Assembly (NCBI GenBank): GCA_945877575.1
Contig: CAMDUE010000002.1
Span: 197,861-261,860 of the forward strand
Direction: 5' to 3'
Length of the DNA stretch: 64,000 nucleotides
DNA from: Chitinophaga pinensis
Lineage (GTDB): Bacteria > Bacteroidota > Bacteroidia > NS11-12g > UBA955
Position 1 is the first letter of the stretch. Each line of letters opens with the position of its first letter. A model generated the notes under the pieces. It searched no databases. It had not been told where the DNA came from and saw only the letters and a list, made by a program, of their open reading frames with translations. The position numbers were made by a program, and so were the translations under genes. Positions 16,260 through 55,116 of the stretch are shown piece after piece.

Positions 16260-16386
16260 CCGAGTTTGGCGCCGTTTTACTTCCGAGTTTGGCACTGTTT
16301 TACTTCCGAGTTTGGCGTTTTTTTAAAATACCCCCTACCAACTACCAGGTACCATCTACCAGGTACTAGGTACCAGGTACCAGGTA
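16260..16386. repeat. 23-bp direct repeats (CCGAGTTTGGCRCYGTTTTACTT, about 2.6 copies) followed by a TACCAGGTA / CTACC hexamer array
   Basis: Directly visible in the divergent intergenic region. The array is the reverse-strand version of the GGTAGN family found elsewhere in the window. Confidence 0.8.
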
Positions 16387-16480: not shown

Positions 16481-18397
16481 ATGGAGCGACAACTACAGCA
16501 TTTGTTTTTGAAAATTTTAGGGAAAAAGTACCTTCCGGTGTGGGTGATATTGGGCATCGATCTGGTACTTGTGGGTGTGGCCTACGTGTTTTCGCTGTTG
16601 TTGTTGAGCAATTTCAATCTTGATAAAATTTATAATGTAGAGCATCTTCGGGCGTGGGCCTTTTTGGAGCTCTCGTTTGCGGTGTCGTTTGTGGTGTTTA
16701 GGTCGTATGAAGGGGCTTTCCGACATACGGGTGTGAGGGATTTGATGCGTCTGGCGGTGGCCAGCGTGACCGCGTTATCGGCGACCTTCTTTTTGAGTCG
16801 GTCGGCGCATCAGTTTTTGCCGGTCGATTTATCGAAACTGTCTATTGCGTTTTTGATTTTGCACGGATTCGCATTTTTGATGGGGGTTTTGGGATTGAGG
16901 TTGTTCGTTAAGTTGAGTTACAGCCGCTTCGTGTTGAAGTCGGATGCTAAGAAAGATAAGGGTTTGATCATTTATGGTGCTGGTGTTACGGGCATCAGCG
17001 TGCGGAACGCCATCAAGCAAGATCCCAATGCAACTGCAGATGTGGTGGGTTTTGTGGATGATAATCCGAGCGTGGTGGGCAAGCGAATCGATGGCATCAA
17101 GGTGTATTCGGCTGATGAAGTTTTCGAAAAAGACTTCCTCGAGAAAAATAAGGTGACGGGAGTGGTTTGGTCGGTGCAATCGGTATCGAACAACAGTTTT
17201 CATAGGGTCGGTGAGTTGTGTTTGCAGTTCAATTTGAATTTCCAGCGGGTGCCGAACGTCAATGAATGGATTGGCGGGGATTTGAGTGCGAAACAGTTGC
17301 GCACGGTAAAAATCGAAGATTTGCTGAACAGGCACCCCATATCCCTCGATAATAAAAACATCAAGAGTTTCATCAGAGGAAAACGGGTGTTGGTGACGGG
17401 TGCGGCAGGATCTATTGGATCAGAGATTTGCCGACAGGTAATTCATTATGGGCCGGAGTGTTTGGTGATGTTAGACAACGCCGAAACGCCCATGAACGAC
17501 TTGATTTTGGAGTTGGTGAAGAACTATGGAGAATCGAAAATTCTACATCCAATTTTGGGGGATGTGACCCGCGAAAACCGAATTGAGGAAGTATTTGCCA
17601 AGCACCAACCGGAGATTGTGTTCCACGCGGCGGCCTACAAACATGTCCCGTTGATGGAAAACAATGCCAAGGAGGCGGTGAGGGTGAATGTGCGCGGAAC
17701 TCAGGTTCTGGCGGAAGCGAGCGTGCGTCATGGAGTGAAGAAGTTTGTAATGATTTCGACGGATAAAGCGGTGAATCCCACGAATGTGATGGGAGCGACG
17801 AAGCGCACGGCGGAAATCTTGGTTCAGGATATGAATCGAAAGGCAGAGACGGAGTTCATCACCACGCGTTTTGGTAATGTGTTGGGATCGAATGGGTCTG
17901 TAATTCCGTTGTTCCGCAAGCAGATTGAGGCGAGGCAGGATGTTACGGTGACCCACCGAGATATTGTTCGTTATTTCATGACCATTCCGGAGGCAGTTCA
18001 ATTGGTTTTGGAAGCGGGCACCATGGGTAATGGAGGTGAGATATTTGTCTTTGATATGGGTGAACCCGTTCGCATTTACGACCTCGCTGAGAAGATGATT
18101 AAGTTGAGCGGTTTCGAGCCCGGCAAAGATATCCGCATTATAGAAACGGGTTTACGTCCTGGAGAAAAACTCTACGAAGAGCTGTTAAGCTCCGCGGAGA
18201 GCACAGTCCCCACGCATCACCCTAAGATATTGATTGCCAAAGTCAGAGAATACGAATCGGGCGCATTAACCGGCAAATTTGAATCCTTGACGTACGCTTC
18301 TTTAAACGGCGCCACTGACTGGGAGTTGGTTAAGTTGCTGAAAGAATTGGTTCCCGAGTATATCAGTCAGAATTCGGAGTTTGAAAGGTTAGATTGA
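16481..18397 (+). CDS. Polysaccharide biosynthesis protein CapD/WbpM (membrane-anchored UDP-GlcNAc 4,6-dehydratase)
   Basis: N-terminal TM helices followed by two Rossmann domains: VLVTGAAGSIGSEI and YGAGVTGIS. 638 aa. Confidence 0.85.
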   Translation: MERQLQHLFLKILGKKYLPVWVILGIDLVLVGVAYVFSLLLLSNFNLDKIYNVEHLRAWAFLELSFAVSFVVFRSYEGAFRHTGVRDLMRLAVASVTALSATFFLSRSAHQFLPVDLSKLSIAFLILHGFAFLMGVLGLRLFVKLSYSRFVLKSDAKKDKGLIIYGAGVTGISVRNAIKQDPNATADVVGFVDDNPSVVGKRIDGIKVYSADEVFEKDFLEKNKVTGVVWSVQSVSNNSFHRVGELCLQFNLNFQRVPNVNEWIGGDLSAKQLRTVKIEDLLNRHPISLDNKNIKSFIRGKRVLVTGAAGSIGSEICRQVIHYGPECLVMLDNAETPMNDLILELVKNYGESKILHPILGDVTRENRIEEVFAKHQPEIVFHAAAYKHVPLMENNAKEAVRVNVRGTQVLAEASVRHGVKKFVMISTDKAVNPTNVMGATKRTAEILVQDMNRKAETEFITTRFGNVLGSNGSVIPLFRKQIEARQDVTVTHRDIVRYFMTIPEAVQLVLEAGTMGNGGEIFVFDMGEPVRIYDLAEKMIKLSGFEPGKDIRIIETGLRPGEKLYEELLSSAESTVPTHHPKILIAKVREYESGALTGKFESLTYASLNGATDWELVKLLKELVPEYISQNSEFERLD

Positions 18398-18421
18398 ACG
18401 ATTATTTAGAGTCACTTACAA

Positions 18422-19810
18422 ATGCATATTATTTATTATTATATCAGATCAAACAAGTACTATATAATTTATTTTTTAATCAGAGTCATATCAATTTTTT
18501 TTCTTTTTAATTTAGCTCCTGATATTTCTCGACAGCTGAATGTTACAATGGTTCTTAAGAATCACGGAGCATATGGTTTAAAAATGTTAAACATTATTAC
18601 AAAAACATATGAAATTTCGCCATATTATTCTCACCCCCCATTTTTATCTTTAATAATTTATTTAATCGATTTTTTATTTAATAATATTATCTATTCTACG
18701 GTTTTTTTGGGAATAATATTGGCTGCAATAGAAACACAAATGGTCGGAAAAATTTTAAAGAAATTCGTATATGTTGATAATCAATTTATAATAGTGTTTT
18801 TATTATGCTCACTTTATATAGGTCATATTGACAGGGGTACTATATCTGATTATTTTTCAATTGTTCTTGGATTGTTTCTTTTCTGGCAAATATTGAAATT
18901 GATTGACAAAGAAACCATAAATTTTTTAAATACAGTTATTGTAATACTATTAGTACCTTGTTCGAAATATAGTCTATTTCCGGTTGTAATTTCATTTACT
19001 TTAATATATTTTTTTATAAAAATCCGACGCAAACAGTTATTCCAATTTGAAAGTTTTATTGTAGGATTATCATCTTTATTTTCACTGTTGATACTTATAT
19101 ACTTAAAAGCCAAAGGTGTCAATAATGTATTAAATGAAGATAACCAATTATTTCTGGATTTATACAACATCTCTAAAGTGGATTATTTTTGGTTTCATTT
19201 TGGTTTGGAAATTGATAGATTTTATAAACATTTAATGTGGTTTTCAGAAAAAAAATTAGATGTTAAAATATGGTACTGGTATTTTGGTCAAATTTTTGGT
19301 GTAATCACTGTTGCAATCGTTGTTTCGAAATCTAAAAAATTTATTTCTGAGAATAAGGTTCTTTTGTATAGTCTGATAGTTTTTTCTATTTTCCAATATA
19401 TCTTTTTATTTCTCCTTCAAATTACAACACCTCCCCAAGAAGGTGTTCATTATGGGGTTGATAATTTATGTTGGGTGTTTTCTGAAGAAGCTCGCTATTA
19501 TAACTATTTATCACTGCTTTGGTTTATTGTACTTGTTATAGGTTTACTTGGTTTTAAAAATAATTTTTATCTAGGAATATTAGTTCTATTAATAACTTTT
19601 GGTTATGCTAAAACAACGTATGCAAGATCAAATGGATTTAGTGAAATTAAATTTATACGATTGAGTAAACAATTTAATTATGCAAATAATATTTTAAATC
19701 CTACAAAGAAAGGTTGTTCAGCTTCTGAAGTTAATTGGCCCGATAAAATAGATAAGGAAATTCTATTAATATTTGGTGTAAAAAAAGTTAACATTAAAGT
19801 TAATCATTAG
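18422..19810 (+). CDS. Polytopic membrane protein of unknown function (possible GtrC/ArnT/Wzy-like)
   Basis: Very AT-rich ORF with more than 10 predicted hydrophobic helices. Start codon uncertain. Confidence 0.4.
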   Translation: MHIIYYYIRSNKYYIIYFLIRVISIFFLFNLAPDISRQLNVTMVLKNHGAYGLKMLNIITKTYEISPYYSHPPFLSLIIYLIDFLFNNIIYSTVFLGIILAAIETQMVGKILKKFVYVDNQFIIVFLLCSLYIGHIDRGTISDYFSIVLGLFLFWQILKLIDKETINFLNTVIVILLVPCSKYSLFPVVISFTLIYFFIKIRRKQLFQFESFIVGLSSLFSLLILIYLKAKGVNNVLNEDNQLFLDLYNISKVDYFWFHFGLEIDRFYKHLMWFSEKKLDVKIWYWYFGQIFGVITVAIVVSKSKKFISENKVLLYSLIVFSIFQYIFLFLLQITTPPQEGVHYGVDNLCWVFSEEARYYNYLSLLWFIVLVIGLLGFKNNFYLGILVLLITFGYAKTTYARSNGFSEIKFIRLSKQFNYANNILNPTKKGCSASEVNWPDKIDKEILLIFGVKKVNIKVNH

Positions 19811-19872
19811 TGATTTAGCGGTTTAACATCCAAACCTTTAAAAACAAATACTTTTATTAAAGATCATACATT

Positions 19873-20703
19873 ATGTCAAAAGATTTCCTGTTTAGCATTG
19901 ATCTTGAAGATCCAAGAGAAAATATTTGGAATAAGGACAGATACGAGGATCGTGTCAATCTAAATGTAATGAAATTATTGGATTGGTTAGAGAATAATAA
20001 TTCGAAGACTACTTTTTTCGTTGTTGGTAAAATAGCAGAGAGATATCCTGATTTAGTAAAACAAATATTTATAAAAGGACATGAAATAGCTTGCCATTCA
20101 TATTCTCATATTCCAATAAACCATTTAGGTAAAAAAGAATTCGAAAATGATCTTGTGCGCAATATTGAAGCAATAATAAATTGTGGTGTACCGAGTCCCA
20201 TAGGGTTTCGGGCTCCCACATTTTCCTTGATTGAAAGTTCATTCTGGGCATATAATATTCTCCGAAATAATGGTATTAAATATTCTAGTTCTGTACTACC
20301 AGCTAAAAATCCACTTTTTGGAATACCAAATTTCGGGCAACAACCTAAATATATTGATGGAATATTGGAAATTCCTGTCACTATTAGTAATTTCCTCTTC
20401 TATAAACTTCCAATTGCTGGTGGTATTTATTTACGGATTTTGCCCAAGCATATTATTTTGGCTAAAGCGCGTAATTTTCTTAGTACAAATTACCCATTAG
20501 TAAGTTATATACATCCTTACGATATAGACGTTAATCAAAATTATTTTATGCATGAACATATCAATAATCACATTTTAAATTATTTAATGTACTTTAACCG
20601 AAAAAATACTTTATTGAGGTTGGACTCATTTATTGATTTGGATTATAATATAATAACATATGAGAGATTCTTCAGAGATCATTTATCAAAGAATATCAGC
20701 TGA
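19873..20703 (+). CDS. Polysaccharide deacetylase family protein (NodB-like / DUF3473-like)
   Basis: N-terminal FSIDLEDP motif. FVVGKIAERYPDLVKQIFIKGHEIACHSYSH. Confidence 0.6.
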   Translation: MSKDFLFSIDLEDPRENIWNKDRYEDRVNLNVMKLLDWLENNNSKTTFFVVGKIAERYPDLVKQIFIKGHEIACHSYSHIPINHLGKKEFENDLVRNIEAIINCGVPSPIGFRAPTFSLIESSFWAYNILRNNGIKYSSSVLPAKNPLFGIPNFGQQPKYIDGILEIPVTISNFLFYKLPIAGGIYLRILPKHIILAKARNFLSTNYPLVSYIHPYDIDVNQNYFMHEHINNHILNYLMYFNRKNTLLRLDSFIDLDYNIITYERFFRDHLSKNIS

Positions 20704-21487
20704 TTCTAAATTTATCAAAAGGCAACTTGAACTTTTGAATTTAGTATTTGGAAAGAATTCTTTTTCAAGTAATTTTTTAAATTGGTTGTATCATGAGAAT
20801 CCAAATGGTAACATATTTGGTTTTGATGCATATTATAGAGAGAAATTAGTAGGTCATTATGCTACAATTCCTGTCTATTATTTTTATGGGAATAGAACTA
20901 TAAAAGGTCTTTTATCTCTAAATACTGCAACTCATCCAGATTTTCAAGGAATGGGTATTTTTACTAGATTGGCGAAATTTACTTACGACGTAGCCCAAAA
21001 AGAAGGTTATAATTTTGTGATAGGCGTATCAAATAAGAATAGTACATATGCTTTTATTAATAAACTTGATTTTAAATTAGTGAAGCCACTTGATGTGTAT
21101 ATTAATTTTTTTACGCGTTCACATAATACAAAAGTCAAAATTAATTTTGGAGGACAAAGAAATTTTGAATTTACTAAATGGAGACTATCAAATCCCAAAA
21201 GCAGTTATTTCGATTGTAAGGATATGGTGGTAAGCAAAAAGTATTTTGGATTATTAACAATACAAGTTTCCAAAAATTCAAGGGTAATTGAGCTGGACAA
21301 ATGTAATTGTATTATACTGCTTAGTGTAGGTATCAATAATCATCCAAAATCATTATTTTCGTTTAAATTACCTGAGTTTTTAAAACCTTCTCCTTTAAAT
21401 TTAATAATTCGCTCCCTTTCTACTGATTTTGCAATTCCAAACCATAATGAAATTTTATTTGAAAATTTTGATTTTGATGCTTTTTAG
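20660..21487 (+). CDS. GNAT-fold acyltransferase (FemAB-like?)
   Basis: GNAT motif A FQGMGIFTRLAKF. Confidence 0.45.
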   Translation: MRDSSEIIYQRISADSKFIKRQLELLNLVFGKNSFSSNFLNWLYHENPNGNIFGFDAYYREKLVGHYATIPVYYFYGNRTIKGLLSLNTATHPDFQGMGIFTRLAKFTYDVAQKEGYNFVIGVSNKNSTYAFINKLDFKLVKPLDVYINFFTRSHNTKVKINFGGQRNFEFTKWRLSNPKSSYFDCKDMVVSKKYFGLLTIQVSKNSRVIELDKCNCIILLSVGINNHPKSLFSFKLPEFLKPSPLNLIIRSLSTDFAIPNHNEILFENFDFDAF

Positions 21488-21564
21488 ATTCTGATAAGAC
21501 ATTTGTTTCGAGCGCAATTTTTTAGGTTAGAGAATTACAAAGTATGTTTCCATATTTGATAATA

Positions 21565-21599
21565 TTTGTTAAGTACTGCAAGAGATTATTGTATTTTTG
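21565..21599 (+). promoter_or_regulatory. Candidate Bacteroidetes sigma-A promoter (TTTG ... TATTTTTG)
   Basis: TAnnTTTG-type -7 element TATTTTTG at 21592-21599, about 27 bp upstream of the ATG. An upstream TTTG is present, but the spacer is slightly long. Confidence 0.25.
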
Positions 21600-21625
21600 A
21601 TATTTTACACCACTAAATTATAAAC

Positions 21626-22516
21626 ATGCAAAGCGTATCTATAATTGTTCCTTGTTATAATGAACAAGATAATTTGCCAAAGTTGATTGATAAAATCGCT
21701 AAATTCATTTCAGATAACAAAGATTACTATGTTATTTTTGTTAACGATGGTAGTAAAGATAATACATTGGAATGCTTGAAAAACAGTATTAACGAAAAGT
21801 TTGTAATAGTTTCGCATTCGAGAAACAGAGAATATGGTGCGGCTATAAAAAGTGGAATATTATCTGCAGAAACTGATTTTTGTATTACAATTGACGGTGA
21901 TGGTCAACATGATTTGCAAGACATACCAAAAATGTTAAATCAATTATTGGAATCAAAATCCGACATGATTGTTGGTAATCGAAATGGGAAGGGTTCTAGT
22001 AGTTTTAGGAATCTTGGAAAATGGATGATCCGTAAGTTTATTACAACCATGACAGATTTGTCAATTGAAGATGTTAATAGTGGAATGAAGTTATATAGAA
22101 CGGAAGTTGTAAAGTCACTGATAAAGTGGGCACCTAGTGATATGTCCTTTTCAGAAACAATAGTAATTTTACACAACCATTTTCGATATAAGATTTCAGA
22201 ATTGGAAATTAATATTTTCAATAGGGAAGCTGGGAAGAGTACAATAAACATTAATACAGCAATTAAAGCAGTAAAGGAAATTGTTTTTTTGCTAATTAAT
22301 TTCTTTCCATTTCGTTTCTTCTCGTTAATAGGAACTATTTTTTTCATATTTGGCCTGTTCTGGAGTTTGCCATTTTTAATAAACGGTGAAGGATTGACCA
22401 TTGGTTCAGGTTTTATATTCTCGAGTTGTGTATTAATCTTTTTATTAGGAATAATATTGCAAACTTTGACTCGTATGAAGTTTGAAGATTATTTACATGT
22501 TAATAGTAAGGTATAA
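21626..22516 (+). CDS. Polyprenyl-phosphate glycosyltransferase, GT2 (GtrB/ArnC/DPM1-like)
   Basis: VSIIVPCYNEQDNLPKL...FVNDGSKDNT...DGDGQHD. Two C-terminal TM helices as in GtrB/ArnC. Confidence 0.75.
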   Translation: MQSVSIIVPCYNEQDNLPKLIDKIAKFISDNKDYYVIFVNDGSKDNTLECLKNSINEKFVIVSHSRNREYGAAIKSGILSAETDFCITIDGDGQHDLQDIPKMLNQLLESKSDMIVGNRNGKGSSSFRNLGKWMIRKFITTMTDLSIEDVNSGMKLYRTEVVKSLIKWAPSDMSFSETIVILHNHFRYKISELEINIFNREAGKSTININTAIKAVKEIVFLLINFFPFRFFSLIGTIFFIFGLFWSLPFLINGEGLTIGSGFIFSSCVLIFLLGIILQTLTRMKFEDYLHVNSKV

Positions 22517-22599
22517 TACTATTGTGTAATTTATGATAAATTCATTCATAATTTATTAAAAGGTTTATTTTTAATTCAAATGAAATCTGATAACCTATT

Positions 22600-23961
22600 A
22601 TGAATCACAGGTGCTTACATATTCTCAATCGTTTTGGATTTGGCACTAGCATTCAATTTTTGCTGAATTATGAATTATCTGATTTACTGATTGATGAAAA
22701 TAAAATGAAATTTTGGTTGATTAATGAAGTTCCGGAATTTGTAGAAATAGAGAAAGTCAACAAAGAATTTTCAACTGAAGCAAAAATAGGCTCAAATGAA
22801 AAATGGAGAAAAAGATGGCCTGATGCAGCTGTGAGAACCGATTGGATTCAATTCATGGTTGAATTAGAAAATCCTCTTAGAGAAAAAGCTGCGCTATTTT
22901 GGAATCATGTAGTACCGATTTCAGTGGGGATTTGGGGTTTTGCACAGAATTTATTGATAGATTCATACCGAAAGAATGCTTTTTCAGATTACAATGTGTT
23001 ACTGAAGGATGTTTTAGCCTCACCTTGCGCGATGAAGTTTCTAAATGCCTATCATTCCAAAAAAGATAATCCCAATCAGAACATGCCCCGTGAATTGCTT
23101 GAACTGTTTACGGTAGGTATTGATAATTACGGTCAGAATGATGTTTTGGAAATTTCGAGAGCTTTTGCTGGCAGAAGAACAGTAAATCCGGATAATTTTA
23201 AAGTCCCTTATCCTTATCAACTGTATATTGATGAAAATAATTCAGACAGGGGGGAGAAGACTATTCTAGGTCAAACTGGAAATTGGGATGGAAATGACGC
23301 AATCGACATTCTCGTAAATTCAAAACATACTCATGAGAGAGTTGCTCATTTATTTATGAGGTTCTTTGTTTCAGACAAACCAAAAGATGAGCATGTTGAT
23401 GAATTGGCAGCATTTACATTTTCTAAAAATAGAATTAATTTTATTGATTTGGTTCAATACACAATCAATTCAGAATGGTTCTTTCGAGATGAATATATTG
23501 GAAATAAAGTAAAAACACCCGTGGAACATTGGGTTGGATTTCAAAAAAAGATGGGATTAAAAGTTTTAACCAGCGAATTACATTCAAATGTATTAAGACA
23601 GTTTGGTCAGGATGTATTTTTCCCCATAAATGTTGGTGGATGGCCTTGGGGTGAAGGTTGGTTAAATGGAAATTTACTCATAAACAGAGTGTTTTTACCC
23701 AAAGCAATTTTAGAAATCGCCCAAGAAAATCAACAGGAAATAGAAATGTCTTTCTCTGAAAAGGTAACATACAGAACATTCAAAAAACACCTATTGGGAA
23801 TGCGATTTGAGAGTGCTGTGTTATTGAATATCAGAGAAGTTATAAATATTCTCAAAGAAAATAATGTTAAGTTGTCCAGTTGGGTCTTGTCTAGAAACAC
23901 AAGTTTAAAAAACGACGAAATTAGTTATTTAATTACTCATCAATTATTTCAATATCATTGA
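22600..23961 (+). CDS. DUF1800 family protein
   Basis: HILNRFGFGTS and ELFTVGIDNY...ARAFAGRR motifs characteristic of DUF1800. Paired with the downstream DUF1501 gene. Confidence 0.6.
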   Translation: MNHRCLHILNRFGFGTSIQFLLNYELSDLLIDENKMKFWLINEVPEFVEIEKVNKEFSTEAKIGSNEKWRKRWPDAAVRTDWIQFMVELENPLREKAALFWNHVVPISVGIWGFAQNLLIDSYRKNAFSDYNVLLKDVLASPCAMKFLNAYHSKKDNPNQNMPRELLELFTVGIDNYGQNDVLEISRAFAGRRTVNPDNFKVPYPYQLYIDENNSDRGEKTILGQTGNWDGNDAIDILVNSKHTHERVAHLFMRFFVSDKPKDEHVDELAAFTFSKNRINFIDLVQYTINSEWFFRDEYIGNKVKTPVEHWVGFQKKMGLKVLTSELHSNVLRQFGQDVFFPINVGGWPWGEGWLNGNLLINRVFLPKAILEIAQENQQEIEMSFSEKVTYRTFKKHLLGMRFESAVLLNIREVINILKENNVKLSSWVLSRNTSLKNDEISYLITHQLFQYH

Positions 23962-25076
23962 AAAGAAGTGCATTCATAAAGATAGTTGGGAGTGGCGTTG
24001 TTGCAGGGTCAATCGGTTCAATGTTTGAATCCTGCTCTGTAAATCAGACCAAGAAATATTCTGATGATGTATTGGTAGTAGTGAGAGTGAAAGGTGGAAT
24101 GGATGGATATCATTTGATTTCTCCTAAGGAGAATGATTTGCTCCTAAAATTACGGCCCAATATTCAAAAGTCTATTGAACAAAAAGGAATAAATTACCGG
24201 AATAATTGGTTTATAAATCCAAATTTTGCTGTAATAGCAGATCTAAATGAGAAGGGTTGGCTTCAAATCATCCCAAATGTTGGATATTCTGATTATAATA
24301 GATTGTCTCATTTTAAAGCACAAGATTATTGGGAAACAGGAAGTGTTGTAGGTGATAAAGTTCAACATAGGACGGGGTGGGCTGGAAGGTTAGTTGATAA
24401 CAATATTATTCAAGTTAATGGGAACAAATCACCTATTTTAATAATTGACAATGAGCAAACATTGTTTGATAAAGGAGAAAATAGTTCAGGAGTGTATTAC
24501 ACCCCATTTAATACCTATTCTAATTTATTTCCCTTAGTTGAGGATTGGATTAATGAGAATAAAAATAGCTTAGAGAATAAGCAGATTTATCAGAGAGTCG
24601 AAGAGCAATATAGAATAAATCAATTATTAAAAGAAACAAGTCCAAATTCTGTGTCGTCCAAGGATATGAAGGGAAAGTTGGATCAGATTGCTGATTGCAT
24701 TGAGAAGGAATTGCCGTTTAGGGTATACAATTTAACTCAAAGTGGATATGATACTCATCACAAACAGACAATTAGATTAGAGCCATTAGCCTTAGACTTA
24801 TTCAATGGATTAAATCAATTTGCCGAGCGTCTTCAACAGGGAAATAATTGGGGGAGAGTAAAGGTATTGGTATACACTGAATTTGGAAGGACAATTGCTG
24901 AAAACAGTAATGGCGGAACAGATCACGGAACGGCAAATCATACATATTTATTAGGTGGTAATCTTGGAGATAAATGGTTAAATCCTTCTTTTGAATTTAA
25001 TACAATGAAAATTGCGGGTAATGATTATTTGACAATCAATGAGGATTTTAGAGAAATATACAAGAGTTTAATTTGA
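23958..25076 (+). CDS. DUF1501 family protein (sulfatase-like, Tat-signal-like N-terminus)
   Basis: NGGTDHGTANHTYLLGGNLG motif. N-terminal MKRSAFIKIVGSGVVAG. Confidence 0.6.
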   Translation: MKRSAFIKIVGSGVVAGSIGSMFESCSVNQTKKYSDDVLVVVRVKGGMDGYHLISPKENDLLLKLRPNIQKSIEQKGINYRNNWFINPNFAVIADLNEKGWLQIIPNVGYSDYNRLSHFKAQDYWETGSVVGDKVQHRTGWAGRLVDNNIIQVNGNKSPILIIDNEQTLFDKGENSSGVYYTPFNTYSNLFPLVEDWINENKNSLENKQIYQRVEEQYRINQLLKETSPNSVSSKDMKGKLDQIADCIEKELPFRVYNLTQSGYDTHHKQTIRLEPLALDLFNGLNQFAERLQQGNNWGRVKVLVYTEFGRTIAENSNGGTDHGTANHTYLLGGNLGDKWLNPSFEFNTMKIAGNDYLTINEDFREIYKSLI

Positions 25077-25081
25077 TTTAG

Positions 25082-26116
25082 TTATTCCATTCTCTCCCAA
25101 GTGCTTTTTAGAACTTTTGTTTTGAGGCCGTGTTTTTCGGCGAGGTAGCGCGCGAAGACGGCAGAGTAGCCGTGGGTGACGGAAATGGTGTGGGCTTCGG
25201 TGGCGAGGCAGGCGGTTTCGAGTTCTTGGAAGTCGGCGTGGTCGCTGAGAACGAATCCGCGGTCAAAGTTTCCCCAACGGCGGGAACCGCGAAGGGCCAT
25301 CCAGCCGGAGCAGGAAATTGTTAGGTGACGAGGGTCTTGTGGCGAGGGACTGGTGTCTATATTTTGGGTGTTAGGGGTCGGGTGTCGGGATTCGGAGGGG
25401 GTCGGGTTACGGGAGTCGGTGGGGTTGCTGGAGATGAGGATGTGCTTGGAGGTGGGGCGTTGGTTTTTGGTGGTAGGGTAAATGGGGGGAAGGAAGATAT
25501 TGAAGCCGTCACGGTTGAGGGCTTGGGTTGTGTCGGCGATGGTTTTGGTGACGTAGAGGGGGAGGTCTTGGAGGTGATGGATGAGACGCTGGGCTTTTCC
25601 GAGGGAGTAGGCTGAGATGATGAGGTTTTCATCGTTGTTGTGGAAGTATTCGCGGATGTCGTTGAAGATATCGGCTTGGGGTGTCCATCGAAAAACGGGG
25701 AGTCCGAAGGTGCTTTCGGTGATAAAGTGGTGGCATTTCACGGGTTCGAATGGGGTGGAGATGCCGTCATTGTTGAGTTTATAGTCCCCCGAAACGACCC
25801 AAATTTCGCCTTGATGTTCTAGTCGGATTTGCGCGGAACCGGGTATGTGTCCGGCGGGATGAAAGGAAATGTTGACGCCGTTGATGCTGATGGTTTGGCT
25901 GAAGGGAAGGGTTTGGAGGGAGATGTGTTGACCGAGACGGAGTTTCAGGATGTGTTCGTTGCCCTGGGCGGCGAGGTAGTGTTTGTGGTTGGGTCGGGCG
26001 TGATCAGCGTGGGCGTGGGTGATGAGGGCTTTGTTGACGGGCTTGTGGGGATCTATGTAGACATCGGCGGCGGGGCAGTAGAGGCCGGATGGGGTGGAGG
26101 TTAGTAGTTGGTACAT
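25082..26116 (-). CDS. Ligase-associated DNA damage response exonuclease (MBL-fold)
   Basis: GLYCPAADVYIDPHKPVNKALITHAHADHA N-terminus and HxHxDH metallo-beta-lactamase motif. An ATP-dependent DNA ligase gene lies nearby. Contains an in-frame low-complexity insert. Confidence 0.7.
   Translation of the reverse strand: MYQLLTSTPSGLYCPAADVYIDPHKPVNKALITHAHADHARPNHKHYLAAQGNEHILKLRLGQHISLQTLPFSQTISINGVNISFHPAGHIPGSAQIRLEHQGEIWVVSGDYKLNNDGISTPFEPVKCHHFITESTFGLPVFRWTPQADIFNDIREYFHNNDENLIISAYSLGKAQRLIHHLQDLPLYVTKTIADTTQALNRDGFNIFLPPIYPTTKNQRPTSKHILISSNPTDSRNPTPSESRHPTPNTQNIDTSPSPQDPRHLTISCSGWMALRGSRRWGNFDRGFVLSDHADFQELETACLATEAHTISVTHGYSAVFARYLAEKHGLKTKVLKSTWERME
25325..25480. repeat. G-rich heptamer array (GGGTGTC/GGGATTC/GGGTTAC ...) embedded in-frame in the exonuclease CDS
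   Basis: Seen directly. Encodes TDSRNPTPSESRHPTPNTQ... on the minus strand. Confidence 0.7.
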
Positions 26117-26160
26117 GGTAGATGGTACATGGTAGATGGTAGATGGTACATGGTAGGGGG
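26101..26160. repeat. GGTACATGGTAGATGG hexamer array at the exonuclease start
   Basis: ggtacatggtagatggtacatggtagatggtagatggtacatggtagggggtagggg. Confidence 0.8.
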
Positions 26161-26171
26161 TAGGGGATATT

Positions 26172-28391: not shown

Positions 28392-28413
28392 GGTGCGAAG
28401 ATAGTAAAAATTA

Positions 28414-28560
<147 letters not shown>

Positions 28561-28642
28561 CGGATAGTGTGGGGAAGTGGTTTTATGTTTGCGGTTTGAA
28601 GGCATGGGATATTTGTACGGATAAAATACGTACATTTGTTGA

Positions 28643-28933
28643 ATGGAAAATAAGATGGAACGAATTGAGTTGAGGGTGAGCAAGTCGGAAAAAATGATAT
28701 TACAGCGGGCGGCAGAAATATTGGGTTTCGGGTCATTGAGTGCCTTTTTATTATCGGAAGTTCGTCCTAAAGCAGAGGAGGTAGTGAAGAGAGAGAGTAC
28801 AATAAGATTAAATTTGGAAGACTCTTTCAAGATCATGGAGTATCTTGAAAGGGGGGAAGTGGAGAATGGTGCTTTGAAAAAGGCGAGGGAAATGTACGGT
28901 CAAGTGGTGAAAGATGAAGGAATTCCGATTTGA
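28643..28933 (+). CDS. DUF1778 family antitoxin (TacA-like, RHH)
   Basis: RIELRVSKSEKMILQRAAEILGFGSLSAFLLSE. 96 aa. Overlaps the downstream GNAT gene by 20 bp. Confidence 0.7.
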   Translation: MENKMERIELRVSKSEKMILQRAAEILGFGSLSAFLLSEVRPKAEEVVKRESTIRLNLEDSFKIMEYLERGEVENGALKKAREMYGQVVKDEGIPI

Positions 28934-29402
28934 GAAACTGGATGTAAAAAGGCACGACAGAAAATCATTTGTTTCTGGAAACGAAGAATTAGATCAGTTT
29001 TTTCAAACCCAGGCCAGACAGCAAATGGAGAAGCGTTTGAGTGTCTGCTTTGTCATGTTAAATGGCGGATCAAAAATTATTGGATTTTATACATTAAGTT
29101 CTGCAAGTGTAGAAGCAAATGAAAGTAGAATTTCGAGTTCAAAATATGTAAGCTTACCTGTGGTTTTGATTGGTAGACTGGCTGTACATTCTCAGTTTCA
29201 AAAGCAGGGTTTAAGTGGATTGATGTTGGTTAATATCATTGAAAGAGTTAGAAAATTATCGGAGAGTGAAATTGGGGTTAAGGGCATTTTCGTTGAGCCC
29301 AAATCCGAGGAAATCTCATTGTACTACCTTAAATATGGATTTTTGAAGCTGGAAAAAGGGGTGTTTTATCCTTTCGGTAAAAATTCAAGTAATTCTGGAT
29401 AA
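28914..29402 (+). CDS. GNAT family acetyltransferase toxin (TacT-like)
   Basis: 162 aa GNAT, translationally coupled to the DUF1778 gene. N-terminal KLDVKRHDRKSFVSGNEELDQFF is typical of TacT/KacT. Confidence 0.7.
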   Translation: MKEFRFEKLDVKRHDRKSFVSGNEELDQFFQTQARQQMEKRLSVCFVMLNGGSKIIGFYTLSSASVEANESRISSSKYVSLPVVLIGRLAVHSQFQKQGLSGLMLVNIIERVRKLSESEIGVKGIFVEPKSEEISLYYLKYGFLKLEKGVFYPFGKNSSNSG

Positions 29403-30905
29403 CAGTTCTTCAAGGGTGGCGATGTCTTTGACGGATTTATCGCGGCGCCAGCGCACGATGCGAGGGAAACGAACGGCGATGCCGCTTTTATGTCGGGTGC
29501 TACGATTGATTCCTTCGAAGGCGAGTTCGAAGACGAGTTCGGCGTCTACACTTTTTACAGGGCCGAAACTTTCACGGGTGTGGAGTTTGATCCATTTATT
29601 GACTTCTAGAATTTCAGCGTCAGTGAGTCCGGAATAGGCTTTAGCAAACGGTACGAGTTCCTCGCCTTTGTAAATGGCGAAGGTAAAATCGGTATATAGG
29701 TTGGCGCGACGACCGTGTCCGCGTTGGGCGTAGATGAGAACGGCATCAACAGTGTCTGCGTCGACTTTCCATTTCCACCAATCGCCGCGTTTACGTCCAA
29801 TTCCATAGGCTGAATCTTTGCGTTTGATCATGAGTCCTTCGCTTCTTATTTGGGAGGATTCATTTCTGATTTTCTGGAGTTCTTCAAAGTCTTTGGGATG
29901 AAAAACGGGACTGGGCTGTATGTGAGTGTTTGGTGATGGGAATAGATTGTCTAGTTGTTGTCGACGATTGAAAAGGGGTTCCTGGCGAAGGTCTTGACCG
30001 TTAATTTCGAGGAGGTCATAGGCTAAAAACACGACAGGGTAGTCTGTGAGAGTTTTTTTTCCGGGGGACTTTCTTCCGAGTCTTTTTTGCAGGTCTTGAA
30101 ACGGTCTTGGGAGTTGAAGTTCAAAGTCCCAACAAAGGATTTCCCCATCGAGGGCGCCCGAAAAAGCATCCCAAGAAAGCATGGAGGAAGCAAGTTCAGG
30201 AAATTGGTGGGTGATGATGTCTTCGCCGCGTGACCAGAGGTTTATGGAGTTGTTGCGTTTGATGATTTGCGCGCGGATGCCATCCCATTTAGGCTCTATT
30301 TGATAATTTGTAAGTGGATGAATATCTGTTGATTGAGGATCTTCATTGAAGGGAGACGCAAGGAAAAAAGGGTATGGTTTGGTAGAATTTAGATGGGGTT
30401 TTGGTGAGATGATGAGGTCTTGGTAGTTGGAGTTTTGCACGGTCCAATTTCCCATCAATCGGAGGTTGAGCTCGTCTTTTTCGATGCCTGTGTGAGCGTG
30501 AAGGGCTTGAACGAGAAGTCCTTGAGAGACGCCAAGTCGGAAGCCGCCGGTGAGGAGTTTGATTGATGGTAGTTGGTAGGGGGTAGAGGGTAGGGGGTAG
30601 AGGGACTGTGAGTTTTGGAGGATGAGGTGGATGGTTTCGGCGAGGTCACCTACTACGGAGTAGGATTCTTCGAAGAGCCAATCGGGGATTTGGGCGGTTT
30701 GGATGGCCCATTGTTTGAGTTCGGATAGTTTGATTTGTCGTTTGGGTCGGCGGCCGGTGAAGATTGCGATGACCATGAGTTTGTCAGGGTCTGGGGCTTG
30801 GTTGAAATAATGGGTTAGGGCTTGCACCTTACGGGAGTTTTTGGTGGTGGAGTCGAGTTCGTAGAAAAGTTTGGAAAAGAGATCAGGAACTTCGAAGATG
30901 TGCAT
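29385..30905 (-). CDS. ATP-dependent DNA ligase (ligase-associated DNA damage response type)
   Basis: N-terminal FSKLFYELDSTTKNSRKVQALTHYF. Motif I EPKWDGIRAQI (the adenylated Lys). 506 aa. Contains an in-frame GGTAGN array. Confidence 0.8.
   Translation of the reverse strand: MHIFEVPDLFSKLFYELDSTTKNSRKVQALTHYFNQAPDPDKLMVIAIFTGRRPKRQIKLSELKQWAIQTAQIPDWLFEESYSVVGDLAETIHLILQNSQSLYPLPSTPYQLPSIKLLTGGFRLGVSQGLLVQALHAHTGIEKDELNLRLMGNWTVQNSNYQDLIISPKPHLNSTKPYPFFLASPFNEDPQSTDIHPLTNYQIEPKWDGIRAQIIKRNNSINLWSRGEDIITHQFPELASSMLSWDAFSGALDGEILCWDFELQLPRPFQDLQKRLGRKSPGKKTLTDYPVVFLAYDLLEINGQDLRQEPLFNRRQQLDNLFPSPNTHIQPSPVFHPKDFEELQKIRNESSQIRSEGLMIKRKDSAYGIGRKRGDWWKWKVDADTVDAVLIYAQRGHGRRANLYTDFTFAIYKGEELVPFAKAYSGLTDAEILEVNKWIKLHTRESFGPVKSVDAELVFELAFEGINRSTRHKSGIAVRFPRIVRWRRDKSVKDIATLEELLSRIT
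30568..30605. repeat. (GGTAGN)6 array in-frame inside the ligase CDS
   Basis: ggtagttggtagggggtagagggtagggggtagaggg. Encodes PLPSTPYQLPS on the minus strand. Confidence 0.8.
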
Positions 30906-49341: not shown

Positions 49342-52300
49342 TTAAAATGCTGCTTCAACGCCAATTAGGAACCGGAAATCTACGAAGTTTTCTTGTGGAT
49401 TCACGGTATTTAGGAAAAATGGAAAATCAATTCTATATCGCATGGTTCTTGGAGAGTAAGAGTAGTTGCGATTGATGATTTTATTGTAATTATTGATGTT
49501 GATCCACGTTCCTATTCCGGCATCTGCGAGCAGGTTGCTGTTGTACCAATTATTTGATTTTTGGATTGCGATCAAACCTGCATCAGCGAATAAATAGGGT
49601 GAAAAAGAAATGAATTTATTTTTCAAAAAGGGCGAAAGTAACTTTCCGAAGTGCCATTCTGTGTTGATAGATATACCAGAAGTACCTCTAAAAAATGCCA
49701 TGATGCTGTCGTTTGATTTGATTCCAATGGCTCTTCCATGAAATCCTCTGAGGTTCAGTCCGCCACCTAAATGGGTGTAATTCGGTTGGATGTTTCCGAG
49801 ATTTCGAACCATCATATTTTGGAATTGAGTTTCAGGGTTGGCGCTTGATGTGTAAAGGGCTGATTCAGGTGATGGATTCGCACCTTGAGCTAATTGAGCG
49901 AATACTCTAGACTTGAAAGTGGTTGATTTAATAGGTTGTTGGTGTTTCCATTCTAGGTTAAACCAACCAAATTGTGTTTGGCTCCAAGGCGATATTAATC
50001 GGGTATCAACGGCAATGGTTCCTGACCTTGACCAACCTGAGTATTGGATGTTCCAAAACAGGTGGAAGTTGGTATTGGTTCTGTCAGACCAAGTACTTGC
50101 AGTGGGTAGATAACCATTGAAAAGGGAATTCTTGTTTATGATGGTTTCGGTGTTTGAACTAAGTGCCCTTAGGTCTTTTCCATAAAGTCCGAAGGTATGT
50201 TTCCCCAATTTCCATTTCCAACCTAGTATTGAGCTCAGACGTTGGTTTGAGGAGATGATTTCTGCAAAATATGTCCCTCCACCGCGTATGTCATGTTGCC
50301 AATTTACTAAACCATTGATGGTCTGGTGAGCGAATTTTATATAATTTAATGGGTAAATCTGATTATTAAGGGCATAATATATTCTGGCATCAAAAACATG
50401 TTTTCGGCTGGCATATTGTCCGGTAAATTTTGCACCAATCATGGTTCCAGAATACTGATTGTATGCAATTGCGGGTCTAATTAGTACTTCGTATGGTTCT
50501 AAAATATTGCTATTTGGACCTTGTCCTTGATCGAGTTTAAAGGAAATTTTCTTTTTCCAACGGTTATTCCTTCGGTCAATGTCGGCCAAAAGGTAGGTGG
50601 CGTCCAAGAAAATTTCTGTGAGTTCATGTTTGGGTTCAATGCTCACATTGATGGTAAAATCGCGGTTCAAACGTCCCCAAGAATTCCAAACCTTGGTTGA
50701 AAGCCTGTTAGGAATGATGTATTGATTTGTTGGGATGGTTAATTGGGTAAATATTAATTTTCCACTTTCGGTTCGTGTCAAAAGGTCTAAGTTCACGGGC
50801 ATGGTGAGATTTCCGTAGCGATGAACGGTGATTTTATATTGACCATTCTCGAGCTTTTTTACTTTTTTAATGCCGTAGTCAATGACTTCTTTCGATTCAA
50901 ACCATTGATCAAAGAACTTATTCAGATCAATTTGTGCTGATTGAATGACTGAATTTCGAAAATCTTCTATGTACGGATGCTTGAATTTCCATTGTTCCAC
51001 ATAGTTTTTCATGGCTATCGAGAAAATGGAATCCCCCAAGAAATAGCGCAAATTGTAGAGCATGGTAGCCGTTTTGTAGTATACATTTCCGTATCCGCCG
51101 CCATGTCCAACGGCCTCATGAAATTCATTACTATGGGTATTGAGACGTTCGTCTTCGCCATCAATGGCATCATCCAAATAGGGGCCAATGGCCCTGGAAT
51201 ATTCGGGAAATGGCTCTACTTTCAGCTCTTTCAGAGCTTCGGCCGTTAAAAATTGAGTGAATCCTTCGTCGAGAGCTGCCCGATAGGTTTCGTTGCTGCC
51301 CACCATTCCCATGAACCAATTGTGGGCCACTTCGTGTGCGATGAGTGCTCTGTGCGAGGGATAGGAACCGCCGCAGAGCGTGAGCATGGGGTATTCCATA
51401 CCATCAGCAGCGTCTGCCACCACAATTTTAGGGTATGCATACATCCCATAATTTCGGCTGTAAAAGGCAATGACTTCACTTAAATATTGCGCGGTTTTTG
51501 TCCAATTTTTGGCATTATGGGCTTGTGCGATTGCCACGCATTGAATTCCGTTCCATGTGACTTCGCTTATTCTGTAGGTTGGATCAGCTGTCCAAGCAAA
51601 ATCGTGAACGTTTTGAGCAAGGAAATGCCAAGTTTTGGTAGTTGGTAGGGGGTAGTTGGTAGTTGGTAGTTGGTAGGGGGTAGTTGGTAGGGGGGTGTTG
51701 GGTTTCGGGTTTTGGGTTTCGGGGGACGGGGAGCGGGAGTTGGGTTGGTTGATGTCAATGGCTTTTTTGAGATCATCGGGAAGTGCTTCTTCGCGGTTTA
51801 AGAGTAATCCGGTGGCTTCAACGATGTACTTTTCTGGGAGATTTAGTTTCACATCAAAGGTGCCAAAGTCGCCGTAAAATTCTTTTTCAAGGTGTTGGCT
51901 GGTTTCCCAAGTGAACTTTTGGTCATAGACGCAAATTCTTGGGTACCAATGAACACCGTTGAAATGTTTAACTCCATGATGATCAAACACTTTCATTCTC
52001 CGGCGAATGGATCCTCGATCAAAATAAGTCTTGAACCAAATTTCAAACACGCAAGAATCTCCTGATTGCAGAGGCTCAGGAAGATCAATTTTCATGATGG
52101 TATAATCAATCTGAGGATCTAAAATGACTTTTTTATAGGGTTTGGTTGATTTATTTCCTTCAATTTGAATCCATGTGATTTGTGTCCCCAAACCTTGTTT
52201 TTCGTAGTTGCCGTAGGTGGGTTTAATTTTATTTAGTTCGTAGAGTTTATCTGTTAAAGAACCTGGCTGAGTGGAGTTTTGATATAAATGAAAAAAAGCT

Positions 52301-52548
52301 TCATTCAGGGTATTGGGTGAGTTGTTGGTGTAAGTCAATCGAAGTTTACCCGTAATAACTTCCGAACTATCATCAAGACTTGCATCTATTTGATAGTGAA
52401 CTTTTTGTTGCCAGTAAGTGGTAGGTGGTAGATGGTAGGGGGTAGGGGGTACTTGGTAAATGGTAGGGGGTAGTTGGCCGTTGGTAGAGAGGAGTTTTGT
52501 GGGGAAGAGTGACCAGAAAAAGATGAGCAAAATCAAGCGCATTCTCAA
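49342..52548 (-). CDS. M1 family zinc metallopeptidase (secreted), with PT/Y-rich low-complexity linkers
   Basis: Signal peptide. HEVAHNWF...E (HEXXH-X18-E). 1068 aa. Two in-frame hexamer-repeat inserts. Confidence 0.8.
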   Translation of the reverse strand: MRMRLILLIFFWSLFPTKLLSTNGQLPPTIYQVPPTPYHLPPTTYWQQKVHYQIDASLDDSSEVITGKLRLTYTNNSPNTLNEAFFHLYQNSTQPGSLTDKLYELNKIKPTYGNYEKQGLGTQITWIQIEGNKSTKPYKKVILDPQIDYTIMKIDLPEPLQSGDSCVFEIWFKTYFDRGSIRRRMKVFDHHGVKHFNGVHWYPRICVYDQKFTWETSQHLEKEFYGDFGTFDVKLNLPEKYIVEATGLLLNREEALPDDLKKAIDINQPNSRSPSPETQNPKPNTPLPTTPYQLPTTNYPLPTTKTWHFLAQNVHDFAWTADPTYRISEVTWNGIQCVAIAQAHNAKNWTKTAQYLSEVIAFYSRNYGMYAYPKIVVADAADGMEYPMLTLCGGSYPSHRALIAHEVAHNWFMGMVGSNETYRAALDEGFTQFLTAEALKELKVEPFPEYSRAIGPYLDDAIDGEDERLNTHSNEFHEAVGHGGGYGNVYYKTATMLYNLRYFLGDSIFSIAMKNYVEQWKFKHPYIEDFRNSVIQSAQIDLNKFFDQWFESKEVIDYGIKKVKKLENGQYKITVHRYGNLTMPVNLDLLTRTESGKLIFTQLTIPTNQYIIPNRLSTKVWNSWGRLNRDFTINVSIEPKHELTEIFLDATYLLADIDRRNNRWKKKISFKLDQGQGPNSNILEPYEVLIRPAIAYNQYSGTMIGAKFTGQYASRKHVFDARIYYALNNQIYPLNYIKFAHQTINGLVNWQHDIRGGGTYFAEIISSNQRLSSILGWKWKLGKHTFGLYGKDLRALSSNTETIINKNSLFNGYLPTASTWSDRTNTNFHLFWNIQYSGWSRSGTIAVDTRLISPWSQTQFGWFNLEWKHQQPIKSTTFKSRVFAQLAQGANPSPESALYTSSANPETQFQNMMVRNLGNIQPNYTHLGGGLNLRGFHGRAIGIKSNDSIMAFFRGTSGISINTEWHFGKLLSPFLKNKFISFSPYLFADAGLIAIQKSNNWYNSNLLADAGIGTWININNYNKIINRNYSYSPRTMRYRIDFPFFLNTVNPQENFVDFRFLIGVEAAF
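51637..51750. repeat. (GGTAGN)n + (GGGTTTC)n composite array in-frame in the M1 peptidase CDS
   Basis: ggtagttggtagggggtagttgg...gggtttcgggttttgggtttcgggggacgggg. Encodes NPKPNTPLPTTPYQLPTTNYPLPTT. Confidence 0.8.
52419..52492. repeat. (GGTAGN)n array in-frame right after the M1 peptidase signal peptide
   Basis: gtggtaggtggtagatggtagggggtagggggtacttggtaaatggtagggggtagttgg. Encodes QLPPTIYQVPPTPYHLPPTTY. Confidence 0.8.
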
Positions 52549-54304: not shown

Positions 54305-54480
54305 TCCAAGGTAGTTGGTAGCAGGTAGTTGGTAGCAGGTAGTTGGTAGTTGGTAGCAGGTAGTTGGTAGTTGGTAGCTGGGCTCTGGCCCAAAACCCGG
54401 TACCCAAAACCCGAAACCCGATACCCGATACCCGATACCCGATACCTGAAACCTGATACCCGATACCCGGTACCCGATAC
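54305..54480. repeat. About 175-bp simple-repeat block: (GGTAGYWG)n then (CCCGATA/CCCGAAA)n
   Basis: Seen directly between convergent coaD and NUDIX genes. The minus strand is a (GGGTATC)n G4 motif. Confidence 0.85.
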
Positions 54481-55116
54481 CTAGTACCCAGTACCAACTA
54501 AATGCTTCTTGATGATATCGTGGATGCTGTGGTAGGACTGGAACTCAGAAGAGTTGAACCAGTCAAGTGGGGCGAAATTTGCTTCGGTGATGCCTTCTTC
54601 TTCTTGCGGTTTTAATGCGGCGGTGCCGCTGCTGTTCATTCTGTACCAGTGGGTTTCCTTTAGGAGAATGGCGTTGTCTTCGTAGTAGGCGTGGTAGGTT
54701 TCTCCGATTTTTTCGGAAATGTTGAGGTGATTGATGCCGGTTTCTTCCATCACTTCGCGAAGGGCGGCGGCAATTTGATCTTCGTGGCGTTCTATTTTGC
54801 CCTTGGGAAGATCCCAAACACCGTTGCGTTTGATGGTTAGTAATTCGTGGTTTTTGTTGAATACTAATCCTCCAGCGGCTTGAATAACGGTGTATTCTTC
54901 AATGAATTCTCTCAGTGTTTCTTGAGGTTCAGGGGTCATCAATCCGAAGGTCATGGGTTTGCCCAAGGCCTCGCTTGATATTAAGATGTTAAAACTTTTA
55001 TGGATTTCATCATCACCTATGAAATAAAAGTTTGGAATGCCTTTGAGAGCATCCAGAGAATCTGTGATGATCAACGCACCCTCATTGAAGTAGATTTTGT
55101 AAGTTTGCGGCTCCAT
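54481..55116 (-). CDS. NUDIX hydrolase
   Basis: Nudix box GKIERHEDQIAAALREVMEETGI. Confidence 0.8.
   Translation of the reverse strand: MEPQTYKIYFNEGALIITDSLDALKGIPNFYFIGDDEIHKSFNILISSEALGKPMTFGLMTPEPQETLREFIEEYTVIQAAGGLVFNKNHELLTIKRNGVWDLPKGKIERHEDQIAAALREVMEETGINHLNISEKIGETYHAYYEDNAILLKETHWYRMNSSGTAALKPQEEEGITEANFAPLDWFNSSEFQSYHSIHDIIKKHLVGTGY

Follow-up and report, generated by a model that had tools for sequence, protein, structure and literature searches.

The locus analyzed here raises the question of how a tandem repeat with a unit of seven nucleotides comes to be read in frame within a DNA repair enzyme, and of whether it entered the gene as a discrete element or was shaped by processes acting in place. 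The gene encodes an ATP-dependent DNA ligase and lies on a 64,000-nt stretch of the Bacteroidota contig CAMDUE010000002.1 (assembly GCA_945877575.1), referred to throughout as the window. An initial annotation, made from the sequence alone, had described the repeat as colonization of the enzyme by a repeat element analogous to the Rickettsia palindromic elements (RPEs). Our analysis confirmed that the ligase tract is a real, non-random, in-frame heptamer microsatellite. We consider it probable (roughly 0.8) that this heptanucleotide microsatellite is driven by slippage and that its turnover is filtered by reading frame, by orientation and by structural tolerance.

The ligase gene and its heptamer tract

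The gene and the repeat are positioned in the window as follows:

29385..30905, minus strand: ATP-dependent DNA ligase of the LigB/LADR type, 506 aa (TIGR04120, PRK09247)
30568..30604, plus strand: heptamer array (GGTAGNN)x5; the gene reads the complement, CTACCNN, which encodes ligase residues S101-P113
30564..30610, minus strand: hypervariable 47-nt tract with flanks that are identical in close relatives

On the plus strand, positions 30568-30604 consist of the units GGTAGTT, GGTAGGG, GGTAGAG, GGTAGGG and GGTAGAG, followed by a final GG, i.e. five units of 7 nt. Tandem Repeats Finder reported a period of 7 with 4.3 copies and a period of 14 with 100% matches, while identity within the tract was 0.76 at lag 7 and 0.70 at lag 21, as compared with 0.34-0.41 at lags 3, 6 and 9. 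The array had been annotated as GGTAGN at 30568-30605; it is present, but its unit is GGTAGNN, seven nucleotides long and not six, and the last base of the quoted string is 30604. When the minus-strand open reading frame (ORF) of 506 aa is translated, the tract is read in frame as ...QNSQ-SLYPLPSTPYQLP-SIKLL... (codons 101-113, S101-LYPLPSTPYQL-P113) and sits between two conserved ligase blocks, GDLAETI... and KLLTGGFRxGVS. The preserved frame and the position between conserved blocks were thus annotated correctly, as was the motif family that the ligase tract has in common with intergenic arrays.

The host enzyme is well defined. The ORF scored 547 bits against TIGR04120 (cut-off 400) and 602 bits against PRK09247 (cut-off 543), passing both curated equivalog cut-offs, and matched three ligase Pfam domains (PF04675, PF01068 and PF04679), corresponding to an architecture of N-terminal DNA-binding domain (DBD), adenylation domain and OB domain. 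The DBD is incomplete, with the Pfam profile DNA_ligase_A_N (PF04675) being covered only at positions 4-108 of 174. In alignments, the catalytic KxDG motif, the conserved catalytic residues and the OB domain are intact. The AlphaFold (AF2) model of the enzyme resembles archaeal and human Lig1 structures, with E-values of about 1e-40 to 1e-30, and the best match among GTDB species representatives, from a metagenome-assembled genome labeled 'Bacteroidetes bacterium', is 57% identical.

Three contigs, drawn from at least two further data sets (ENA ERZ27280281 and Logan ERR3719164), also encode the exact 506-aa ligase, and the cluster table additionally names NCBI as a source. As the identical protein recurs in other data sets, the tract is not an assembly artefact of the window. 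A decaying pseudogene, or an assembly or sequencing error, could account for the truncated DBD, and repeats are prone to assembly errors. Such an explanation is nonetheless refuted and retains next to no probability, given the intact ORF with the KxDG motif and all conserved catalytic residues, the equivalog-level scores, a ratio of non-synonymous to synonymous substitution rates (dN/dS) of about 0.1 over about 900 non-synonymous sites, the identical protein elsewhere and the in-frame relatives on more than 20 contigs.

The tract in the DNA-binding domain

At 506 aa, the window ligase is below the length of every homologue found (514-632 aa), and alignments place the difference at the tract. 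In every one of the 74 orthologues from beyond the immediate clade (Bacteroidota and Alphaproteobacteria), the interval between the LAETI and GGFR motifs is 67-71 aa long and follows the conserved pattern sLxxWIxEL...EExQK...AWxxL...ERFxFNKL. In the window ligase, the same interval spans 37 aa, and the three cluster representatives nearest to it have low-complexity intervals of 44, 51 and 75 aa. An interval of 37 aa as opposed to 67-71 aa therefore speaks for replacement of about 45 native residues and not for addition. The clean indel that the initial annotation expected in an alignment with orthologues is accordingly not seen, as the ligase is shorter across an interval that is otherwise of fixed length.

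To characterize the replaced segment, AF2 models of the window ligase and of the orthologue P0004 were built from the same family alignment. In the P0004 model (mean pLDDT 91.2), the segment comprises helices 113-123 and 128-141 (pLDDT 93-96), followed by a helix at 144-155. In the window-ligase model (mean pLDDT 89.9), a loop at 98-111 (pLDDT about 53) connects helix 88-97 to a shortened helix at 112-119, which is the counterpart of P0004 helix 144-155. According to these models, the tract takes the place of about 45 native residues, which make up two confidently predicted helices and the beginning of another, and is itself predicted to be a disordered loop in the DBD. The surface loop that had been anticipated for the insert is hence recovered as a loop, albeit at low confidence, with a mean pLDDT of about 53 over residues 101-110. 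A sequence search of the PDB with the ligase yielded alignments only to the catalytic core and the OB domain (residues about 200-501), and because these matches span only that part, the lost helices could not be mapped onto a DNA-bound structure.

These data bear directly on the proposal that a discrete element of the RPE type, or a miniature inverted-repeat transposable element (MITE), entered the ligase in frame by transposition. RPEs form separate palindromic units that are about 150 bp long and share a conserved consensus; they add residues to their hosts, and the peptides that they encode are found in frame in unrelated housekeeping enzymes, where they are tolerated outside the functional core (PMC10969869). 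The dispersal of the motif over many loci would fit such an origin, as would the outcome, i.e. a repeat-derived loop read in frame and tolerated within an enzyme, and to this extent the analogy to RPEs holds. It extends to the outcome only. The ligase tract is a non-palindromic tandem microsatellite of 37-47 nt; as single-stranded DNA, it gave no fold (minimum free energy 0 kcal/mol, z-score 0.38). Inverted repeats, fixed ends and target duplication are absent from it, and its ends grade into the flanks. A search of the whole 64-kb window against Rfam at gathering thresholds gave 0 matches. Furthermore, the host ligase is shorter than its 74 orthologues rather than longer, and both copy number and unit sequence differ between near-identical alleles (see below). 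Length, palindromy and additive insertion thus all set the tract apart from RPEs, and transposition of a discrete element is largely refuted and very improbable. Nothing points to colonization from elsewhere; slippage and turnover in situ explain the data.

Length and unit variation among relatives

Two 90%-identity clusters around the window ligase comprise 34 sequences, and the full-length members are 506, 512, 513, 514, 518, 520, 527 and 535 aa long. Apart from one-residue differences at the C-terminus, all of this variation lies in the tract, as 7-aa steps and a single 2-aa (WY) indel. At the DNA level, tract lengths were compared between identical flanks of genes, from the window and from other metagenomes, encoding proteins that are at least 95% identical, yielding the following alleles:

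Window, L084 and L085: tract of 47 nt, units CTACCNN
L087: tract of 62 nt, units of ACCCGNN type
L002: tract of 68 nt, mixed units
L001: tract of 89 nt, units ACCCGNN
L086: tract of 89 nt, mixed units

All five DNA alleles have lengths of 2 modulo 3 and hence keep the frame, with the differences being mostly 21 nt, i.e. three units or 7 aa. In the more distant L003 lineage (70% identical), this site is occupied by about 20 TCAGCNG/AGCCGAA units, which encode repeats of the SAVSKQH type, and a 7-aa length variant exists there as well (544 as opposed to 537 aa). All 26 protein alleles examined are in frame.

Assemblies tend to break at this position. Scaffolds L086 (2136-2235) and L087 (1076-1175) carry gaps of N with duplicated flanks exactly at the ligase tract, contig L089 begins inside it and contig L088 begins about 130 nt downstream. 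Database 'ligases' of 351 and 356 aa, which were considered as frameshifted (OFF) alleles, exist because assemblies break at the tract, and they were rejected as such, as they trace to these runs of N (L086, L087) or contig starts (L089, L088). The breaks themselves suggest heterogeneity within samples.

A hypermutable repeat in an ORF brings to mind phase-variable contingency loci, in which simple sequence repeats (SSRs) with a unit that is not a multiple of three lie in the ORFs of Haemophilus, Neisseria and others. Under this explanation, a change by one or two units in either direction would shift the reading frame of the ligase, making repair phase-variable in a reversible on/off manner. 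The ligase tract resembles such loci in being a hypermutable repeat in coding sequence, and its 7-nt unit at codons 101-113 is frameshift-prone by construction. It is also hypervariable between strains, and the collapse of assemblies at the tract fits heterogeneity within samples. The array at the start codon of the partner exonuclease, described below, holds three ATGs in two frames. Nevertheless, no on/off states were seen: the five DNA and 26 protein alleles, a small and biased sample that includes the frame-independent L086 and L087, all preserve the frame, and the 351- and 356-aa proteins reflect scaffold gaps or contig ends, not frameshifts. The host is, moreover, a cytoplasmic repair enzyme rather than a surface structure, and as the same arrays are common in intergenic DNA, no special tie to the ligase is needed. 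We thus regard a contingency function as unlikely.

Selection on the gene and the tract

Selection was assessed by Nei-Gojobori estimates of dN/dS. Downstream of the tract, dN/dS was 0.10-0.13 (about 910 non-synonymous sites). Upstream, it was 0.08-0.20 between close alleles and 0.44-0.56 in comparison with L003. By these estimates, the flanks of the ligase tract are under purifying selection (dN/dS about 0.1), while the tract itself is neutral (about 1). The gene is therefore maintained, while the tract is unconstrained.

When the window ligase is compared with that of L003, identity is 62% over the N-terminal 97 residues (dN/dS 0.44-0.56) and 80% for the rest of the protein (0.13). Where both members of an orthologue pair have retained the native helices, conservation of the N-terminus equals or exceeds that of the rest. 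For the one lineage pair available, this hints that constraint on the N-terminal half of the DBD was relaxed after loss of the helices.

The neutral behavior of the tract also bears on the view that the segment is a native, selected flexible linker, with a P/T/Y-rich heptad kept at the protein level and a DNA repeat that is only apparent. The peptide indeed shows a 7-aa periodicity (PLPSTNY, PLPDTRH) and is proline-rich, as many linkers are. At the DNA level, however, identity at lag 7 at least equals that at lag 21, and the same unit is found in intergenic arrays. Besides the tract dN/dS of about 1, the peptide of L003 is wholly different (SAVSKQH...), and the pattern across lineages is the reverse of a peptide conserved without its DNA unit. 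Finally, 74 of the 74 orthologues have folded helices at this place and none carries a P/T/Y-rich segment there. The initial annotation, which had held that the segment is not a native linker and had named such a segment in unrelated orthologues as the finding that would speak against this, is well supported on this point, and a selected linker is even less probable than a transposed element.

Heptamer arrays elsewhere in the window

The ligase tract is one of many. The motif GGTAGNNGGTAG has 34 matches in the window, 33 of them on the plus strand, while 100 shuffles gave an expectation of 0.00. When runs were called at a threshold of at least 60% identity for a given lag, nine period-7 runs were obtained, totaling 977 nt or 1.5% of the window, while lags 5, 6 and 8-11 gave 0-1 runs and shuffled sequences gave 0. 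Overall, seven array loci were distinguished, some of them compound. Three of these are coding, one being that of the ligase and the other two belonging to an M1 peptidase gene. At least six arrays besides the ligase tract are of its heptamer family. The arrays other than the ligase tract are:

16335..16386, minus strand: CTACCNN on the plus strand, the only opposite-oriented array of the GGTAGNN family; intergenic, with divergent genes on either side
About 26104..26166 (outer bounds 26099-26170), plus strand: GGTAGAT/GGTACAT array; intergenic, overlapping the exonuclease start codon
28462..28519, plus strand: GGTAGGG/GGTAGAT x8; intergenic, within a compound AGTCCGA, GGTAGNN and GGACTAT tract at 28410-28563
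51634..51731, plus strand: GGTAGNN x8 (51637-51694), then GGGTTTY x4; read in frame from the minus strand in the M1 peptidase (…SPSPETQNPKPNTPLPTTPYQLPTTNYPLPTTK…)
52420..52473 (also delimited as 52411-52465), plus strand: GGTAGNN array; read in frame from the minus strand, after the M1 peptidase signal peptide (QLPPTIYQVPPTPYHLPPTTY)
54310..54381, plus strand: GGTAGTT/GGTAGCA x10; intergenic, with convergent genes on either side
54395..54495, plus strand: ACCCGAT x about 14 (GGGTATC on the minus strand); inverted relative to the adjoining 54310-54381 array

The ACCCGAT unit of the last array is also the unit of the ligase tract in the relative L001. The two long arrays of inverted orientation at 54310-54495 fill the spacer between the convergent genes; they are separated by GGGCTCTGGCCC, and a Nudix hydrolase ORF overlaps the latter of them at its 3' end. 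A 23-nt direct repeat (CCGAGTTTGGCGCTGTTTTACTT) occurs in three copies at 16260-16325, immediately beside the reverse-oriented heptamer array, in a divergent promoter region upstream of a polysaccharide-biosynthesis gene (16481-18397, a PseB/FnlA-like dehydratase fusion).

In all three coding arrays, identity is 0.75-0.76 at lag 7 and 0.66-0.70 at lag 21, and intergenic arrays behave alike. As lag-7 identity at least equals lag-21 identity, the repeat unit is the DNA heptamer and not a 7-aa peptide, and the apparent heptad represents the three reading phases of one unit. GGTAGNN arrays contain TAG stops in all three plus-strand frames within three units, while CTACCNN is free of stops in the three minus-strand frames; all three in-ORF arrays of the window are read as CTACCNN. 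The placement of the G-rich strand on the plus strand in 33 of 34 GGTAGNNGGTAG matches, together with the positive GC skew of the window, suggests that array orientation is linked to the replication strand. This skew is strongly positive in every 2-kb bin (0.02 to 0.37), irrespective of gene orientation.

All four canonical G-quadruplex (G4) motifs in the window, considering both strands, fall in heptamer tracts. One of these, a predicted G5-TAGA-G3-TA-G5-TAGA-G3 motif at 30579-30604, lies on the template strand of the ligase.

Two other proteins of the window are affected by heptamer arrays:

49342..52548, minus strand: M1-family zinc peptidase (HEVAHNWF motif, PF01433 homologues) with two in-frame heptamer tracts
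25082..26116, minus strand: LADR exonuclease, the partner gene of the ligase (TIGR04122, 359 bits, cut-off 325)

In the peptidase, the N-terminal tract, just past the signal peptide, stands in place of a conserved YRSxxNPxYWKNKxPY segment, while the internal tract (51634-51731) enlarges a variable loop. Both are 7 aa shorter in relatives, the N-terminal one in P0151 (86% identical) and the internal one in P0150 (97%).

In the exonuclease, the ATG start codon is itself made by a heptamer unit (GGTACAT, i.e. ATGTACC on the minus strand), and the array, which holds three ATGs in two frames, could alter initiation of translation upon a change in unit number. This array lies directly downstream of the terminator hairpin of a Dpp7 peptidase gene. 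Within the same gene, a P/T/S-rich low-complexity stretch is found at 25291-25474 (…NPTDSRNPTPSESRHPTPNTQ…), with a G4 motif on the template strand; its lag-7 identity is 0.41, as compared with a background of about 0.35. The stretch may be a decayed ACCCGNN array, although this is suggestive and not demonstrated. In the L003 exonuclease, clear in-frame CCAAAGA and AACTCTA arrays (15446-15618) occupy the same place. Heptamer arrays are a genome-wide habit of the lineage.

When the in-ORF tract of the ligase is considered jointly with the alternative ATGs at the start of its partner, a bolder version of the contingency explanation can be formulated, in which slippage by one or two units would reversibly turn LADR repair off in a subpopulation. 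Alternatively, the lineage might possess its own mechanism that writes G-rich heptamers on a single strand and is able to overwrite coding sequence, as 33 of the 34 GGTAGNNGGTAG matches lie on the strand of positive GC skew. Both proposals are improbable, to about the same degree as a contingency function of the ligase tract alone.

Proposed origin and turnover of the tract

The slippage explanation would involve the following steps. Before the window and L003 lineages diverged, their common ancestor would have acquired an array at this site, either formed in place or landed there, and the native helices would have been lost during or after this event, perhaps via mis-aligned slippage or deletion. 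Since then, replication slippage would have continually expanded, contracted and homogenized the units, with selection purging variants that break the frame. Arrays read in the GGTAG direction would likewise be purged by selection, because three such units suffice for TAG to interrupt every frame. On this view, the tract would be a mutational hot spot consisting of selfish or neutral DNA that the ligase tolerates, and not a functional module of the enzyme.

This explanation has several weak points that need to be considered. Slippage is read from the pattern of variation, and the GGTAG core common to several loci could mean copying or seeding beyond simple slippage. No intermediate lineage between 57% and 70% ligase identity was found, and the founding event may have been either an insertion or a de novo origin. 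Most alleles were found via full-length protein calls, which favors in-frame alleles, with only L086 and L087 being frame-independent. The dN/dS values inside the tract (0.65-1.9) rest on only 10-21 synonymous sites. Lastly, function of the ligase without two helices may be altered, because the N-terminal half of the DBD evolves faster in the clade (62% as opposed to 80% identity).

The locus presents a natural case of non-triplet microsatellites entering and persisting in essential-looking enzymes, subject to three filters: orientation, as stops exclude one strand; frame, as three-unit steps survive; and structure, as the tract forms a loop. A LigB-type ligase that lacks two DBD helices and yet remains under purifying selection amounts to a natural deletion experiment on this sub-domain. 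In practical terms, such tracts break metagenome assemblies at these genes and yield spurious 'truncated' proteins in databases.

Comparison with known heptanucleotide repeats

Dispersed heptanucleotide repeats are an already known class, comprising the short tandemly repeated repetitive (STRR) sequences, long SSRs, TAACTGA repeats and GGGNATC repeats. The ligase tract shares the traits of STRR-type and heptanucleotide SSRs, i.e. head-to-tail 7-nt units, dispersal and copy-number polymorphism between strains. What is unusual here is that folded helices of a repair enzyme are substituted and that polymorphism in three-unit steps is seen at three separate tracts.

The cyanobacterial STRR sequences and the long SSRs (Mrazek et al. 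2007) are dispersed heptanucleotide repeats (PMC4679880, PMC4692102), and our comparison to them draws on the citations within these two papers and on general knowledge. As far as these sources describe them, they and the window arrays alike consist of tandem 7-nt units in many dispersed arrays per genome, with adjoining unit families forming compound tracts; in both cases, arrays are mostly intergenic and vary in copy number between strains, with polymerase slippage being the proposed driver. On the same basis, the window arrays differ in belonging to an uncultured Bacteroidota, in their main unit, GGTAGNN, in that three of seven loci lie in frame within genes and in that the ligase array substitutes for folded helices.

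The GGGNATC repeats of Xanthomonas and Nostoc (Rehm et al. 2015) are G-rich, G-quadruplex-forming and genome-wide, comprise 2-26 units and are over-represented in non-coding DNA (PMC4692102). The window arrays are likewise G-rich heptamers spread over the genome, with the canonical G4 motifs of the window lying in heptamer tracts. While the GGGNATC unit is not matched by the window ligase allele (GGTAGNN), it does fit the ACCCGAT arrays at 54395-54495 and the L001 allele, both being GGGTATC. In contrast to GGGNATC repeats, many window units (GGTAGTT, GGTAGCA) contain only GG runs, and the preference for four units is not seen in the window.

TAACTGA repeats (MacGregor 2015) are found, together with heptamer arrays of other kinds, in Beggiatoaceae, Cyanobacteria and a few Bacteroidetes (PMC4679880). 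In their forward orientation, they hold stops and are translatable only in reverse, such that the point on orientation was already made for them; sets of these repeats are mostly found just upstream of start codons and were proposed to be regulatory (PMC4679880). GGTAGNN arrays resemble them as direct heptamer repeats with a stop-containing forward orientation. They differ in unit, and PMC4679880 gives no in-frame arrays that replace a protein segment.

Neighboring genes and other observations

The LADR exonuclease (TIGR04122, 25082-26116) lies 3.3 kb from the ligase on the same strand, with the Dpp7 peptidase and a TacA/GNAT module in between, while neither an Lhr-like helicase nor PdeM was found among the window ORFs scanned. 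In the window and in some close relatives (L001, L086, L087), the TacA-like antitoxin and GNAT toxin pair (28643-29402 in the window) overlaps the ligase gene at its 3' end. It is absent from that position in L002 and L003; its insertion between the ligase and Dpp7 genes is therefore recent and varies between strains.

Among distant LigB orthologues, P0021, P0028 (599 aa) and P0048 (632 aa) keep the native helices and carry long low-complexity insertions elsewhere; that of P0021 comprises about 50 aa, is T/S/N-rich and lies between strands of the adenylation domain.

Finally, G+C content is 0.29-0.34 at 1-12000 and 18000-24000, as compared with 0.39-0.50 in the rest of the window. These two stretches, which contain dense same-strand ORFs and adjoin sugar-nucleotide genes, are probably a polysaccharide or glycosylation island.

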